DNA of 64,000 nucleotides from an uncultured Candidatus Saccharibacteria bacterium (GTDB taxonomy: Bacteria; Patescibacteriota; Minisyncoccia; Sungbacterales; HO2-52-23), in contig CAZPDF010000006.1 in assembly GCA_964585475.1 (NCBI GenBank), positions 8,531-72,530 of the forward strand, in the 5' to 3' direction. The translations under genes and the position numbers were made by a program. Shown here piece after piece: positions 12,908 to 55,519 of this stretch. The notes beneath the pieces were generated by a model. It worked only from the letters and a program-made list of their open reading frames with translations. It made no database searches and was not told the origin of the DNA. Position 1 is the stretch's first letter. The number at the start of each line of letters is the position of its first letter.

Positions 12908-12969
12908 CCTGTATCATCTTCTTACGTTCTGCCTTCGTGGTGAAATGGCAGATTCACCCTCCCACCTAT

Positions 12970-13051
12970 GTCGCGGTGGCGGAACTGGAATACGCGCAGG
13001 ACTTAGAATCCTGTCCCGTAAGGGTTGTGGGTTCGACTCCCACCCGCGACA
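12970..13051 (+). tRNA. tRNA-Leu (anticodon TAG), type II with long variable arm; no encoded CCA
   Basis: Acceptor GTCGCGG/CCGCGAC; anticodon stem CAGGA/TCCTG with loop CTTAGAA; variable arm TCCCGTAAGGGTTG; T-arm GGGTTCGACTCCC. Confidence 0.6.
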
Positions 13052-13271
13052 TTGGTGGGAGGGCAAGCTGGGTTTAGAGCCCAGCGATCGCAAGATCATG
13101 AGAGTTCAAATCTCTCCCTCGGCATATGAGGTTCCCGCTCATTCAATTCAATTTGAATGAGCGAGGCTCGCCCATCGAAGATGGGCGGCAAATCCTCTCG
13201 GGAGCATGGTATAATCCGCTAGTATAGTTCAATATGATTGAAGCCATGAAATAATTCTTATTTATGTTTAT

Positions 13272-52030: not shown

Positions 52031-52084
52031 TTGTGTGGATAACTTAACTTGTATACATTCTATTTATTTTCTATAATAGTATAT

Positions 52085-53950
52085 ATGCTCACAAAAAAGC
52101 AAACACAAGTCCTAGATTTCATAAAGGCTTATATGGCAAAGCATAGCTATGCCCCCTCCCTCGATGAGATCAAGAAGAAGTTTAAGCTCGCCTCTGTATC
52201 TACTGCTCATTACTACATAAGCAAATTACAAGATGCTGGTTTTTTGAATAAAGAACACAATCAACCTCGTGCTGTTTCGACCGTTAAAGCAAAACAGACT
52301 GTTGAAGTTCCCATTTTAGGAGCAATCGCGGCAGGTGAGCCTATTGAGGCGATAGAAATTCCTGACGAAACAATAACGATCACAAGAGATGAAATTGGAA
52401 AGCAGGGCAAGCACTATGCTTTGCGTGTGCAAGGTAGCAGTATGATTGATGAGGGTATTTTTGATGGCGATATTGTCGTTATACGCAAACAAGAAGTAGC
52501 AGAAAATGGTCAAACTGTTGTGGCGGTCATTGATGATAACGAGGCGACACTCAAAAAACTGTATCGTGAAAATGGAAAGTTTAGACTTCAACCGGCAAAT
52601 CCAACACTATCTCCAATTTATCGTGATGAAGTGGAAGTGAGAGGTGTAGTTGTAAAGATTATTCGAAACCTCGAATCACAACTGGATCAAGGACAATCAA
52701 GGGATGAGAAGTATGTCCGTAAAATAGATTATTCATGGGACTACAGAGGAGAAAAAACAAAGTCGTATACGCACGGAATACATACCTATCCGGCGATGTT
52801 CATTCCACAAGTCGGACGAAGATTGTTAGAAACTTATAGTAAAGAGGGCGATACAATTTGTGATATTTTCTGTGGCTCTGGTTCAGCCTTAGTCGAAAGT
52901 AGGTTGATAGGGAGAAATGCTTACGGCATTGATCTCAATCCTTTGGCCATTTTTCTTGCGAAAGCAAAAACAACTCCAATCAATCCACAAAAACTAACCA
53001 AAGAATACATTATCCTGCTCAGCAGAGTAGAAAAAATAAAGGACAATGAGATAAAAAGACCTGATTTTAAGAATATTGATTTTTGGTTTAAGGACAAGGT
53101 AATAGTTAAACTTGCGAAACTAAAGAAAGCTATACAAGAAATAAAAGACGAGACCATTCAGAATTTCTTGATGGTTGCTTTTAGTGAGACAGTTCGGTAT
53201 TCCTCAAATACAAAGACTGGAGAGTTTAAGTTGGTGCGTGTTAAAGGAGAAAAACTGGAAAAGCATGATCCTGATATCTTGGGCATATTTCGAAAAAATG
53301 CAGAGAAAAATATCGCAGGTATGACGGATTTTTATAAAGATGCAAAAAATGATTCATGGACAAAAATAATCTATGGTGATTCATCAAAAGATAACGGAAT
53401 AAAAGCAAATTCTATTGATTGCATCATCACCTCACCGCCATATGGCGATAGTCGCACTACAGTAGCTTACGGACAGTTTTCTAGACTCTCGGCGCAGTGG
53501 ATTGATGTGTTTGAAGATCCAAATGACGCCTCTGGGGTAGATAACGATCTTCTCGGGGGTAGAGCTACTAAAAATTTAACCCATACACTTTCATCAGCTT
53601 ATCTTAAGGAATCATTAGACAAAATTGTGAAGCAAGACGAAGCAAGAGCAAAAGATGTATTAAGTTTTAATCTTGGATTGAATGAATGTCTGAAACAAGC
53701 TCACAGAATACTTAAACCAAGAAAGTATTTTTGTCTTGTTGTCGGAAATAGATTAGTCAAACAAGTACGAATTCCCACCGACTTTATTATTGCTGAATTA
53801 GCAGAAAAGATAGGTTTTACTTGTGAAGATATAGCCGTTCGAAATATCCCCGGCAAAAGAATGCCAATCAAAAATTCTCCAACGAATATTGTGGGTGCTT
53901 TAGAGGAAACAATGAACAAGGAAAGTATTGTTGTGCTAAGAAAGAATTAG
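52085..53950 (+). CDS. LexA-like repressor (wHTH plus S24 peptidase) fused to an N4-cytosine/N6-adenine DNA methyltransferase (the ORF extends upstream to 52049)
   Basis: N-terminal MLTKKQTQVLDFIKAYMAKHSYAPSLDEIKKKF (LexA DNA-binding domain) and VQGSSMIDEGIFDGDIVVIRKQ...TVVAVIDDNEATLKKL (S24 Ser/Lys dyad). C-terminal MTase motif I DIFCGSGS and motif IV IITSPPYGD. Confidence 0.7.
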   Translation: MLTKKQTQVLDFIKAYMAKHSYAPSLDEIKKKFKLASVSTAHYYISKLQDAGFLNKEHNQPRAVSTVKAKQTVEVPILGAIAAGEPIEAIEIPDETITITRDEIGKQGKHYALRVQGSSMIDEGIFDGDIVVIRKQEVAENGQTVVAVIDDNEATLKKLYRENGKFRLQPANPTLSPIYRDEVEVRGVVVKIIRNLESQLDQGQSRDEKYVRKIDYSWDYRGEKTKSYTHGIHTYPAMFIPQVGRRLLETYSKEGDTICDIFCGSGSALVESRLIGRNAYGIDLNPLAIFLAKAKTTPINPQKLTKEYIILLSRVEKIKDNEIKRPDFKNIDFWFKDKVIVKLAKLKKAIQEIKDETIQNFLMVAFSETVRYSSNTKTGEFKLVRVKGEKLEKHDPDILGIFRKNAEKNIAGMTDFYKDAKNDSWTKIIYGDSSKDNGIKANSIDCIITSPPYGDSRTTVAYGQFSRLSAQWIDVFEDPNDASGVDNDLLGGRATKNLTHTLSSAYLKESLDKIVKQDEARAKDVLSFNLGLNECLKQAHRILKPRKYFCLVVGNRLVKQVRIPTDFIIAELAEKIGFTCEDIAVRNIPGKRMPIKNSPTNIVGALEETMNKESIVVLRKN

Positions 53951-54699
53951 AGAATCTTTTTCTGAATCTTAAACAAAAGTGGTAAAGATTTCTCAGTTAA
54001 GCGGAATGCTGAGCCATGATCATGTGGTTTCCCCGCATTTTTACCACTATGGTATACGCCTAAGCGAATGTCATATTTTGAGTGAGCAAGAAACTTAGTC
54101 GGATCAATTTCTTTCAGAATATAAGCATCTTTGTAATGAAAATACTCATACCCCCGAATCTTTTTTGTTTCAGCACGAACCAATATCAACCCATCTCCTA
54201 TTTTTTCGATAGCTTTTTTCCTCAAAAACGCCAGACTGTAATATCCTAAAAGTTTGCCTTTTTTGAGAATCAGTAATTTCCCTTGTTTTTCATCAATAGT
54301 AGCCTGAAATCCCATACCGTTTCTTTTACCATCACTGATGGTCTGATGGAGAATTTTAATCTTAGGAAATTCAGGATCGGAATAACCAAAGCGTTTTCTT
54401 ATTTCAGCATTTGTAATACCCTCTGGACTCTTGGTGAATAGAGTCATCATTGAAAGAGTATTGAGTCTTTGCGATTTCAATTCCATTACTCCAAAATCTG
54501 GCAGAGCGATATTGTTTTCCGTAATACCAAGATAATCCTCTAGGGTTTTACCTATCCCAGTATTATGACTCCGGTTAGATTTAATCCATCCCTTTTTGGA
54601 GAGTTCTTGAAGTGCTTTCCTAATTTGGGTTAATGTTCGTTTTTGCATATTACTTTTGTCCAAGAAACCCCTATTTTGTTTAGGTTCGAACTTGGACAT
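53947..54699 (-). CDS. Putative type II restriction endonuclease (MvaI/BcnI-like, inferred), partner of the adjacent methyltransferase
   Basis: Overlaps the MTase stop by 4 nt in convergent orientation; TGIGKTLEDYLGI...LPDFGVMELKSQ segment resembles the MvaI/BcnI family as I recall it. Confidence 0.35.
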   Translation of the reverse strand: MSKFEPKQNRGFLDKSNMQKRTLTQIRKALQELSKKGWIKSNRSHNTGIGKTLEDYLGITENNIALPDFGVMELKSQRLNTLSMMTLFTKSPEGITNAEIRKRFGYSDPEFPKIKILHQTISDGKRNGMGFQATIDEKQGKLLILKKGKLLGYYSLAFLRKKAIEKIGDGLILVRAETKKIRGYEYFHYKDAYILKEIDPTKFLAHSKYDIRLGVYHSGKNAGKPHDHGSAFRLTEKSLPLLFKIQKKIL

Positions 54700-54700
54700 C

Positions 54701-55020
54701 TGGCGGTGGGAGGAGGATTTGAACCTCCGACACCCGTAAAGGTGTTCCGGTTTTCCTTGCCCGCACTAAAATTTGGATTTTCGGAAGCGGGAGGATTTGA
54801 ACCCACGATACGGATTTAAACCCGTATAACAGGTTAGCAACCTGCCGCTTTGTTTTTGCGCATTTTTGATTAGCGCAAAAACCCCGGCTGCGTTCGTAGG
54901 CACAAAATGGAGAGGGCGAGATTCAAACTCGCGAGGGACTTTCATCCCTAACACCTTAGCACGGTGCCGCTTTGTTCTCGCCGAGATTGACTCGGCGAGA
55001 ACCCGGAGCGCTTCTCTATG
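54701..55020 (-). pseudogene. Three tRNA 3′-portion fragments lacking matching 5′ acceptor strands: Val(TAC)-like with CCA (54701-54766), Ser-like (54781-54855), Ser(GCT)-like (54905-54990)
   Basis: Each has an anticodon arm, variable arm, T-arm (TTCAAAT/TTTGAAT) and 3′ acceptor strand but no complementary 5′ strand. Two share the motif AAAGCGGCA with the intact tRNA-Ser and are preceded by perfect palindromic hairpins. Confidence 0.45.
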
Positions 55021-55027
55021 TTCACGG

Positions 55028-55114
55028 CGGAGGCGGCAGGATTTGAACCTGCGAAAGGATTTCTCCTTTAACACCTTAGCACGGTGCCGCTTTAAACCGC
55101 TCAGCCACGCCTCC
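55028..55114 (-). tRNA. tRNA-Ser (anticodon GCT), type II
   Basis: Minus strand: GGAGGCG TG GCT-GAGCGGTTTAA-AGC G GCACC-GTGCTAA-GGTGT TAAAGGAGAAATCCTTTC GCAGGTTCAAATCCTGC CGCCTCC G. Confidence 0.75.
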
Positions 55115-55159
55115 GCCGTGAACACAATATAAAGTGCGCTCGCTAAATGTAACGTTAGT

Positions 55160-55470
55160 TACATTTAGCCCACTCAGCCACGCCTCCACGTATTTAATTC
55201 TCGGCGGTGCCTCGATCAAAAAACTGTACGGCTGAGTGTCCGCCGGGGCGGTCTTTTGACCGCCCGTTCAAAGCTGCGCTTGCTCGCTTTGAACCCACTC
55301 AGCCACGCCTCCGCTATAGACCCAATGCAATGTGCGCCCGTCAAAAACAAAATTGTTTGCTTTTGACCCGCTAAGCCACCTCTCCGTTTTGTGTCCAATG
55401 CAAGGTGCAGCCGTTTAACGTGCCTTTAGGCACGTTAAACCCACTCAGCCACACCTTCTCCTGCGCAATA
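55160..55470 (-). repeat. Four degenerate copies of the tRNA-Ser 5′ ~20 nt (GGAGGCGTGGCTGAGTGGG), each followed by a different perfect palindromic hairpin
   Basis: Plus-strand CCCACTCAGCCACGCCTCC-like motif at 55168, 55293, 55367 and 55441. Adjacent palindromes: GCTAAATGTAACGTTAGTTACATTTAGC, TTCAAAGCTGCGCTTGCTCGCTTTGAA, TCAAAAACAAAATTGTTTGCTTTTGA, TTAACGTGCCTTTAGGCACGTTAA. Confidence 0.6.
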
Positions 55471-55519
55471 TTAACATAATTATCGTGTTTACTCAAGGGA
55501 ATGTGGTATAATAAATTCA

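Follow-up and report, generated by a model that had tools for sequence, protein, structure and literature searches.

Introns at unusual positions and split or permuted tRNA genes are taken as archaeal and eukaryotic peculiarities, and they are central to the debates on the origin of tRNA and on protection against mobile DNA. In a model for Caldiarchaeum, tRNA genes are disrupted by a mobile element (PMC3293823). Integrative elements leave partial tRNA copies as attL/attR duplications (PMC9897764). In this study, I analyzed a stretch of 64,000 nucleotides (nt) of contig CAZPDF010000006.1 (hereafter the window) from the lineage Candidatus Sungbacteria in the Candidate Phyla Radiation (CPR/Patescibacteria). 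On its minus strand, from 55496 to 54701, lies an array made of a putative promoter, four 5′ pieces of a tRNA-Ser(GCT) gene, one intact tRNA-Ser(GCT) gene, and three 3′ pieces (A, B, and C). A literature search found no published description of such a nested arrangement in bacteria, and standard tRNA finders report one gene at the array and miss all the other pieces. The reading that I prefer, with a probability of roughly 55%, is repeated, site-specific insertion: a stem-flanked cassette bearing a tRNA-Ser gene would have entered the D-loop of the resident gene several times, leaving one surely functional copy, the innermost, and outer halves that are relics.

The array resembles several described systems in part. 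Like the scars of integrative elements, it has partial copies beside an intact gene at a tRNA hot spot, and the incoming DNA would supply the replacement; unlike those scars, it is broken in the D-loop, both halves are displaced concentrically, a whole tRNA is carried, and the junctions are hairpins and helices that covary. With the disrupted tRNA genes of archaea and red algae it shares an interruption away from the anticodon, halves united by leader-trailer pairing, and canonical joining in silico, and with Caldiarchaeum-type disruption it shares 5′ fragments scattered by a mobile element. However, the host here is a bacterium, the bulge-helix-bulge (BHB) motif is absent, the insert holds a tRNA of the same identity, the levels number up to four or five, and the outer copies are mostly incomplete. 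Intron and intein homing, with the homing-endonuclease cycle of invasion, degeneration, and loss, likewise involves a precise conserved site in an essential gene, a patchy distribution among close relatives, and an element more conserved than its context, and a LAGLIDADG gene occurs in the same pilC/tRNA-Ser interval of two relatives, a link that is positional only. In contrast to homing elements, the cassette has no endonuclease gene and no sign of splicing, and a replacement gene compensates instead. The processing stalks of rRNA operons, whose leader-trailer helices are cut by RNase III, and the intervening sequences of 23S rRNA also have a long helix of flanking sequence that encloses a mature RNA and is kept paired by compensatory changes, and excision without religation would leave a fragmented outer RNA. 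Here, a tRNA is enclosed, the stalk is embedded in the D-loop of another tRNA, and two extra hairpins flank it. I place the array among the tRNA genes disrupted by mobile DNA but outside every named family, because it lacks att repeats, an integrase, a BHB motif, and a group I core, and the element has neither its own endonuclease gene nor terminal inverted repeats.

Order and pairing of the tRNA pieces

ARAGORN and Rfam agreed on a single tRNA between 55461 and 54701 of the minus strand, a type II tRNA-Ser(GCT) at 55114-55026/55028, as a first-pass annotation of the window had proposed (55028-55114; 55.5 bits for the Rfam tRNA family). This innermost tRNA is the only copy that is surely a complete, functional gene. 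The 5′ motif GGAGGCGTGGCTGAGTGGG starts at 55458, 55312, 55187, and 55114 when up to three mismatches are allowed, and it was not found in 100 shuffled sequences. Copies of the first 19 nt of the tRNA, with at most two mismatches each, begin at 55458, 55312, and 55187, and a more diverged fifth 5′ copy, GGAGAGGTGGCTTAGCGGG, begins at 55385. The annotation was thus right that 5′ fragment copies lie upstream of the gene, and the four pieces are named F1 to F4 from the outside. Pieces A and B share the motif AACAAAGCGGCA..TGCTAA (two matches against none expected from shuffles), and both begin at the 3′ strand of the D-stem. The annotation had traced three 3′ portions from the anticodon arm; A and B are such portions and C does end in CCA, but C consists of a variable arm, a T-arm, an acceptor strand, and CCA only, with no recognisable anticodon arm. 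All the tRNA breaks lie at one spot, in the D-loop directly after G18G19, so that the 5′ pieces correspond to tRNA positions 1 to ~25. The array had been described as scrambled. The pieces instead pair concentrically in the order F1[ F2[ F3, F4[ tRNA ] A ] B ] C, in which F1 is the partner of B, F2 is the partner of A, the flank of F4 pairs with the leader of A, and F3 and F4 have no 3′ partner in the array.

The outermost 5′ piece, F1 (55441-55458, minus strand, as are all the features of the array), reads GAAGGTG TG GCT GAGTGG with two mismatches to the motif and comprises the acceptor 5′ strand, the D-stem 5′ strand, and the D-loop to G18G19. Its break abuts a perfect 13-bp hairpin, H1 (55413-55440), which is helix 1 in the covariation analysis below. 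The 5′ strand of stalk 1 follows (55386-55412), with the helix strand GGCTGC, the loop ACCTTGCATTGG, and the extension ACACAAAAC. It pairs with the 3′ strand of stalk 1 in the leader of B (54883-54907; TTTTGTGCC, loop TACGAAC, GCAGCC, and GGG), where GCAGCC is complementary to GGCTGC, and ACACAAAAC lengthens the acceptor stem of F2 and A (helices 2 and 3 in the covariation analysis). Piece B itself (54782-54851) comes after a perfect 10-bp hairpin, HB (54852-54882), and consists of AAAGC, an anticodon arm (GCT), a 6-bp variable arm, a T-arm with one mismatch, and CGCTTCC followed by G; the F1 acceptor strand matches CGCTTCC with one mismatch and two G.U pairs.

One level further in, F2 (55368-55385; GGAGAGG TG GCT TAGCGG) and A (54908-54973) have a perfect 7-bp acceptor complementarity. 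Together with the upstream flank of F2 and the downstream flank of A, the pairing extends over 15 nt at 93% with the arms 463 nt apart (inverted repeat I3). The complementarity of GGAGAGG to CCTCTCC noted in the annotation is thus real and longer than noted, although CCTCTCC lies at 54909-54915 rather than at 54905-54911. Piece A starts with the D-stem 3′ strand AAAGC, continues with an anticodon arm (GCT), a variable arm, and a T-arm whose loop is TTTGAAT (U56), and ends with the acceptor strand and A73. Its stems differ from those of the inner tRNA by fully compensated changes. A perfect 12-bp hairpin, HA (54974-55002; covariation helix 4), precedes it. On the other side, F2 is followed by H2 (55340-55367; 12 bp, one G.T) and by an orphan 5′ stalk strand (55313-55339; GGGCGC ACATTGCATTGG GTCTATAGC) whose 3′ partner is missing. 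Among the related loci and sequence sets compared, which are labeled by L-numbers, L006, L088, and L090 have stalks almost identical to this orphan strand.

Next to the intact gene, F4 (55170-55187; GGAGGCG TG GCT GAGTGG, no mismatch to the motif) has lost its own 3′ partner. It is followed by a perfect 12-bp hairpin, H4 (55142-55169), and by the 5′ strand of stalk 4 (55115-55141), with GAGCGC, the loop ACTTTATATTG, and the extension TGTTCACGGC. The 3′ strand of stalk 4 (55003-55027) has CCGTGAACA, the loop TAGAGAA, GCGCTC, and CGG, and its GCGCTC in the leader of A is complementary to the GAGCGC of F4. The acceptor stem of the intact tRNA and its flanks form a perfect 17-bp inverted repeat (I1). 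Piece C (54701-54745), the outermost remnant, ends in the acceptor strand TCCCACC, G, and CCA; this acceptor resembles the native GGTGGGN/NCCCACC type of the relatives (compare the outer copy of L006, the inner copy of L091, and the outermost 5′ piece of L090).

The hairpins and stalks belong to units of constant design. A 5′ unit is 73-76 nt long and starts with tRNA positions 1 to ~25. Then comes a hairpin whose 5′ arm is the remaining D-loop and the D-stem 3′ strand and whose 3′ arm is the complement of these, and after it a 6-nt strand (GGGCGC-like), the loop A-CATTG-CATTG-G, and 9-10 nt abutting the next tRNA start. The 3′ unit is its mirror image: 9-10 nt, the loop (C)CTAYRAAC, a GCGCCC-like strand, GGG, a hairpin, and AAAGC with the remaining tRNA. 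In RNA letters, the AU-rich loops of the cassette are ACAUUGCAUU and UAUAAAC. The annotation had seen a perfect palindrome after each 5′ copy, and a 9-13-bp palindrome does follow all four, but that of H2 is imperfect by its G.T pair. Perfect hairpins precede the 3′ pieces as well (HA and HB). An unconstrained minimum free energy fold of 761 nt (-354.7 kcal/mol, z = -13.1 against dinucleotide shuffles) reproduces the concentric nesting including the inner cloverleaf.

F3 (55218-55312) has collapsed and holds no tRNA cargo. The unit has a 5′ piece, a perfect 9-bp hairpin H3 (55266-55294), a capped central helix GGGCGG/CCGCCC with a small loop (55246-55265), a strand CACTCAGCC (55230-55238) that folds back to pair with GGCTGAGTG in the D-arm sequence of the same unit, and a T-run read from the sequence (55218-55223), and its fold has z = -4.2. 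The annotation had placed a terminator after this third copy; a terminator scan of the minus strand was empty, and the T-run begins at a distance of 6 nt from the closing stem. Between F3 and F4 lies a spacer, GATCGAGGCACCGCCGAGAATTAAATACGT (55188-55217), that is conserved in L004 and may be an internal promoter. A unit homologous to 55188-55312 of the window was observed in L004 (5753-5862, minus strand), with z of about -4.6 for L004 and -4.2 for the window. Both consist of a 5′ tRNA piece, the hairpin loop GAGCAWGYGCA, the capped GGGCGG/CCGCCC helix, CGGCGGAC, a back-pairing strand, a T-run, and the spacer TGATCGAGGCAYCGCCGAGA. The closing helix differs in sequence between the two and is still complementary, and the loops are the same. 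Possible roles of such a unit are those of a small RNA, an attenuator, or a promoter module.

Could the array be chance similarity or an assembly artefact? Metagenome assemblies can make chimeric repeats, and a contig end of L090 (1180-1363) is an example: it is a near-perfect palindrome with arms of ~80 nt and a loop containing GGATCCCACCGCCAG, a tRNA 3′ end, and it is probably a fold-back artefact of assembly. In the window, however, no match to the motifs is expected by chance, the array sequence is identical in two independent assemblies (L001 and L002), and the same architecture occurs in six other sets from different projects. An artefact is thus extremely improbable, and the array is real, ordered, and concentric rather than scrambled.

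Distribution of the cassette and lineages of the tRNA copies

The cassette was found at tRNA-Ser(GCT) in six sets besides the window (L006, L090, L088, L091, L004, and L094-L102), namely four Sungbacteria loci beside pilC and two unassigned metagenome contigs. A pattern scan of metagenomes gave three true loci. The insertion site is the same in all copies, after GAG[T/C]GG and before AAAGC. L006 has one clean level, in which a complete outer tRNA-Ser(GCT) with a perfect acceptor (GGTGGGT/ACCCACC) is interrupted after GAGTGG. Its insert runs through a hairpin, GGGCGC, ACATTACATTGG, an extension, the intact tRNA, an extension, CTATAAAC, GCGCCC, GGG, and a hairpin, and AAAGC follows. L090 has three levels, with identical innermost and next tRNA bodies and an outermost 5′ piece bearing the native-type acceptor GGTGGGG. 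L094-L102 keep the cassette and the upstream 5′ piece and have no outer 3′ body; these population variants have one substitution in 359 nt and give no polymorphism signal. L004 has a 5′ unit, an F3-type unit, and the conserved spacer of the window before the tRNA, and L088 and L091 have a 5′ unit without a 3′ counterpart. Eight relatives (L003, L092, L093, L103, L105, L107, L108, and L109) have an uninterrupted tRNA-Ser(GCT) and no cassette. Since the cassette is in seven sets and missing in eight relatives, its distribution is patchy. Profile searches with the 5′ unit and the 3′ leader gave no match elsewhere in the window or in 80 unrelated pilC loci, which are distant relatives listed by the PilC alignment search and served only as negative background. 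With a permissive threshold, Rfam returned only intact tRNAs and antisense echoes of a plastid tRNA-Ser-derived family for the region, the whole window, and seven related loci.

The outer body of L006 shares 87-89% identity with the native genes of L091 and L092 but only 58% with its own inner copy, and this inner copy is 92% identical to the inner tRNA of the window. The body of piece B is closest to the native tRNA-Ser of L107 (81%). The native-type acceptor (GGTGGGN/NCCCACC) is found on the outermost pieces, GGTGGGG in L090 and TCCCACC on piece C. Judging from these identities, the nested levels are different tRNA-Ser lineages, which fits a stepwise replacement of the resident gene by a cassette-borne copy and not local duplication. 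In L090, the identical bodies despite different stalks point to gene conversion. The uneven counts of halves, the orphan units, and the collapsed F3 would be expected as products of crossing-over among direct repeats.

The putative native promoter of the window (55468-55496) has TTGAGT at 55496-55491, a 17-nt spacer, and TG-n-TAATAT at 55473-55468, and ends 6 nt before F1. It scores 8/12, below the threshold of the scan. The homologous position in L094 and L006 scores 10/12 with an extended -10 element just upstream of the outermost 5′ piece. The pattern in the relatives is TTGAGN-17-TAnAAT, and the outermost 5′ piece stands where the tRNA start is due. A sigma-70-like promoter directly before the outermost piece is what insertion into a pre-existing gene predicts, and from this position the whole nest would be read from the native promoter.

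Are these levels the scars of classical integration and excision? The first-pass annotation had suggested serial scars of this kind. In such a process, integrase-borne islands recombine with the tRNA gene and replace part of it, and deletions draw the scars together. tRNA-Ser is a hot spot of integration in the relatives, a large serine recombinase abuts the copy in L004 and lies ~1.4 kb away in L105, restriction-modification (RM) or defence islands adjoin the tRNA in the window and L092, ordinary duplications from the T-loop to the 3′ end occur in L108 and L088, and piece C ends in CCA exactly at the island boundary. The breaks, however, lie in the D-loop, with fragments on both sides of the intact gene, and the 5′ unit has a constant length of 73-76 nt and is conserved across genomes, which is not expected from random deletions. 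The leader and trailer strands of each level are complementary, a feature that att recombination does not yield. A blastn-short search with the array over the whole 64-kb window found no tRNA-Ser-derived repeat outside 54.6-55.5 kb, and thus neither an att-core repeat that bounds an element nor one that bounds the RM island, which the annotation had thought to fit integration. No recombinase gene was found by the Pfam scan of the open reading frames (ORFs) at 47.9-62.5 kb, although L004 and L105 have one near the tRNA. Classical scars displace the 3′ part of the gene, with a crossover in the anticodon loop, the T-loop, or the 3′ end, and only C and the fragments of L108 and L088 look like this type. 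The hairpins were also considered as attL/attR cores and rejected; the spacers of the two junction hairpins differ, and since their loops differ they cannot be the attL and attR of one event. Classical scars are therefore distinctly unlikely. The annotation was right to take the pieces mostly for tRNA-Ser(GCT) remnants and to involve mobile DNA, while the D-loop breaks, the concentric pairing, the absence of an integrase near the array in the window, and junctions that form a conserved, covarying cassette common to six other sets speak against the classical form of integration. Its second proposal, a rearranged tRNA cluster, is not supported, given the GCT anticodon arms of A and B, the tRNA-Ser motif shared by the four 5′ pieces, and the nested order.

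Other mobile elements were considered as well. Ends like integron attC sites or IS200/IS605 were rejected on account of the arms, which have the wrong orientation, and of the two end hairpins, whose sequences are unrelated. An insertion sequence or a miniature inverted-repeat transposable element was rejected because the end hairpins differ between copies and between ends and there is no transposase; the 5′ and 3′ pieces have only a short AAAGC overlap in common. No transposase was found near the array.

Covariation of the cassette helices

Thirteen unit copies were compared over four helices, namely the 5′ hairpin, the central helix, the acceptor extension, and the 3′ hairpin. Standard pairing was found in 97% of the cells, compared with about 42% (range 38-47%) when the partners were slid, and 24 of the 33 pairs have changes on both sides (7/9 in the extension and 5/6 in the central helix); none of 500 shuffles reached any of the observed measures. 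The flanks thus pair with compensatory change in the manner of a processing stalk. The most conserved parts of the cassette are the single-stranded loops and the central helix, which hardly differ between genomes with a PilC identity of only 61-66%. Since covariation and loop conservation hold across such diverged genomes, the cassette appears to be under purifying selection, to have spread recently, or both.

These patterns could also arise if the array were a dedicated leader/trailer module for expression. Its units would be functional non-coding RNA or regulatory elements of the tRNA-Ser operon, such as a processing stalk, a decoy, or an attenuator, built from duplicated tRNA parts by unequal crossing-over and without any invasion. 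The covarying helices and conserved loops agree with such a module, as do the order of a 5′ unit, an F3-type unit, a spacer, and the tRNA, which is common to the window and L004 at 66% PilC identity, and the closing helix of the F3-type unit, which changes its partner and stays paired. In contrast, the eight relatives without the cassette have tRNA-Ser(GCT) at the same locus without any part of it, the nested levels are different tRNA lineages, and pairs of complementary strands specific to each level are beyond unequal crossing-over alone. An expression module is thus quite improbable.

Status of the outer copies

When the insert is removed in silico, ARAGORN calls a canonical tRNA-Ser(GCT) for F2 joined to A, for F1 joined to B, and for the outer copies of L006 and L090. 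The rejoined acceptors are perfectly complementary in F2+A and in the outer copies of L006 and L090, and have one mismatch in F1+B. The halves thus rebuild a canonical tRNA with a complementary acceptor, as those of split tRNA genes do. It may be asked whether the outer copies, F2+A and the outer genes of L006 and L090 at the least, still work as tRNA-Ser genes. Their insert would be spliced out by an endonuclease and a ligase, or their product would be a two-piece tRNA. In the two-piece form, the release of the inner tRNA would cut the insert out, and the helices of the acceptor, the D-stem, and the stalk would hold the halves together. Besides the ARAGORN calls, this possibility draws on the F2/A complementarity across 463 nt, the compensated nature of all stem differences between A and the inner tRNA, the intact and covarying stalk helices at the outer level, the native promoter before the outermost piece, and the insertion at the region of D-loop position 20. 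That region tolerates extra nucleotides.

On the other hand, the outer copy cannot be a tRNA in four of the seven cassette sets (L094 has no 3′ body, and L004, L088, and L091 have no 3′ partners), and F3 and F4 of the window are partnerless. Piece A has U56, piece B has a mismatch in the T-stem, decoding needs one tRNA-Ser(GCT) only, and gene conversion accounts for the identical inner and outer bodies of L090. No splicing signal was detected either. The folds have no BHB motif (3-nt bulge, 4-bp helix, 3-nt bulge) at the junctions, where 9-13-bp hairpins abut the tRNA sequence. Bacterial group I introns would sit in the anticodon loop rather than in the D-loop, and no catalytic core was found; Rfam gave no match to Intron_gpI or any ribozyme at E <= 10 in the array and none in the relatives. 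Hammerhead, twister-sister, and kink-turn consensus sequences were not seen by eye in the loops, and they gave no Rfam hit. Functional outer tRNAs are, in sum, unlikely. The annotation had thought a split tRNA much less likely, and had named the recovery of full canonical tRNAs from the fragments by software as a result that would refute the remnant reading. Most outer copies across genomes are partnerless, but ARAGORN does make such calls after removal of the insert, so the split or intron-containing reading stays a minority possibility. A wider form of it is doubtful: the CPR may own a new kind of intervening element, a structured mobile D-loop insert that hosts another tRNA, the outer genes being functional via protein-dependent splicing other than group I or as two-piece tRNAs. 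If true, Bacteria would gain their first tRNA genes that are split or spliced by proteins, and a tRNA inside the intron of another tRNA would be without precedent.

Proposed course of the insertions

The preferred reading, nested insertion of a tRNA-bearing cassette, builds on what was observed: the anatomy and the nesting, the precise site, a cassette that is conserved and covaries, levels of mixed tRNA lineage, and the place of the promoter. The cassette would comprise a 5′ hairpin, a 6-bp helix strand, an AU-rich internal loop, a 9-10-bp acceptor extension, a complete tRNA-Ser(GCT), the matching strands, GGG, and a 3′ hairpin. It would enter the D-loop after G18G19 and before A21. Each insertion would split the old gene into a 5′ half (1 to ~25) and a 3′ half (~21 to 76) and supply a working replacement. 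Because the new inner gene keeps the target site, insertion could recur, and it may have done so at least four times in this genome. Recombination among the repeated halves may then have removed two 3′ halves and collapsed F3, leaving four 5′ pieces and two to three 3′ pieces. The nest is probably transcribed as a single precursor that folds concentrically, and the extended acceptor helix and the AU-rich loops plausibly act as a processing stalk that aids the folding and release of the inner tRNA. The outer copies appear to be dispensable: L094 lost the whole outer 3′ body and kept the cassette, and L004, L088, and L091 have 5′ units without a 3′ partner.

How might the cassette move? The split halves of a donor are homologous to both parts of an intact gene and are thus usable as recombination arms, so the structure may spread by copying into an intact gene, of which its own inner copy is one. 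A homing endonuclease is a candidate for an alternative or added driver. The precise site and the patchy distribution of the cassette are those of a homing element, but no cassette has an endonuclease gene in or beside it, and the LAGLIDADG gene, which is not associated with the cassette, stays a lead only.

Several points weigh against nested insertion. Pfam scans of the ORFs at 47.9-62.5 kb found no gene for an insertion enzyme within the array or next to it, terminal inverted repeats are absent from the element, and the cassette was not found in viral, phage, and plasmid collections. The outermost hairpins and stalk helices are still perfect (38 bp, no mismatch), which one would not expect of neutral relics; it suggests that they still have a role, one that the insertion model leaves unspecified. 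The cassette helices have four G.U pairs against about three A.C mismatches, and their G.U content (1.5%, compared with 3.3% in host tRNA stems; p = 0.2) does not tell constraint on RNA from constraint on DNA. The units of the window are as diverged from each other as from the units of other genomes. Finally, the sample is small, with seven cassette-bearing sequence sets and 13 unit copies.

Neighboring genes and other observations at the locus

The pilC gene diverges from the array, and it assigns the contig to Candidatus Sungbacteria. All the Sungbacteria loci fetched through pilC have tRNA-Ser(GCT) on the upstream side of this gene. On the other side of the array is a gene for an MvaI/BcnI-type restriction endonuclease (53947-54699, minus strand), whose ATG begins 2 nt after the CCA of piece C. 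Next to it, a convergent ORF of 633 amino acids (52049-53950, plus strand) encodes an N4/N6 DNA methylase fused to an S24 peptidase and a LexA DNA-binding domain. The neighbors of tRNA-Ser in L092 include LexA and a Dam-type methylase as two separate genes. The LexA-methylase fusion and the endonuclease may form an SOS-linked RM module. The remaining products of the Pfam scan of 47.9-62.5 kb were pilus genes, LemA, and DUF6498. The junction GCRSYC-SGG(G) of the cassette always holds CCSGG (54883-54891, 55003-55011, and 55243-55251, minus strand), which is the recognition sequence type of the BcnI family, to which the endonuclease adjacent to the array belongs. The presence of CCSGG in the junctions may be a coincidence of GC-rich helices.

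The sequence GCCAGATGTCCAAGTT(C/A)GAACCT follows the tRNA 3′ end both in the window (54680-54705, minus strand) and in L004 (5640-5670, minus strand). In the window, it opens the ORF of the restriction endonuclease; L004 keeps its first codons only, and there the large serine recombinase overlaps the tRNA end. This sequence is probably the attachment site of a separate element. L108 (1130-1260, minus strand) has a duplicate from the T-loop to the 3′ end, TTCGAATCCCACCCTCACCGCCA, ~100 nt downstream of the intact tRNA-Ser(GCT), which is a classical integration-type scar unlike the D-loop nests. In L088, a direct repeat of 48 nt takes in the tRNA 3′ end. In addition, L003 (5570-5790, minus strand) and L088 (12420-12500, plus strand) have a tRNA 3′ fragment with an interrupted T-loop downstream of the intact tRNA-Ser (GTGGG ATTCGAA ... 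AGGAAT CCCAC ... CCA). The interrupting block of L003 consists of a hairpin, a capped helix, GGG, and a hairpin, and it resembles an empty cassette (fold z = -6.3).

A LAGLIDADG_3 gene with an N-terminal helix-turn-helix lies between pilC and the intact tRNA-Ser(GCT) in L093 (1806-2861, minus strand) and L109 (2623-3624, plus strand), and in both the cassette is missing. At E <= 1e-10, more than 1000 proteins belong to the family; the named matches are from Parcubacteria, and many members are on contigs of ~1.2 kb. The tRNA-like start of the ORF in L093 and L109 was discarded as a further tRNA piece, being most simply a GGAG ribosome-binding site and a start codon.

A second nest at tRNA-Leu(TAG)

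A second case of a tRNA within a tRNA was observed at 12931-13124 on the plus strand of the window. There, an intact tRNA-Leu(TAG) (12970-13051) lies inside an 8-bp helix formed by CTCCCACC and GGTGGGAG. The upstream piece has an acceptor strand and a D-arm (GCCTTCG TG GTG AAATGGCAGATT CAC), and the downstream piece has an anticodon arm (TAG), a variable arm, a T-arm, and CCTCGGC-A. The outer tRNA is broken at position 26/27, with the D-arm on one side and the anticodon arm on the other, and junction hairpins are absent. The outer acceptor strands are not complementary (4/7), and ARAGORN gives no call on the joined outer copy. Leader-trailer pairing is not general in the window, since five of its seven tRNAs have none; the tRNA-Leu has it. 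This second nest suggests that the insertion of a new tRNA copy inside an old one is a more general process in this genome.

Implications

In a bacterial lineage, a tRNA gene appears to have been broken repeatedly, at a site other than the anticodon, by a structured and apparently mobile cassette that brings a replacement gene. If the outer halves are relics, the locus preserves successive replacements of a tRNA gene in their order, like strata. It would then also represent a new strategy whereby a selfish insert neutralises its own damage.

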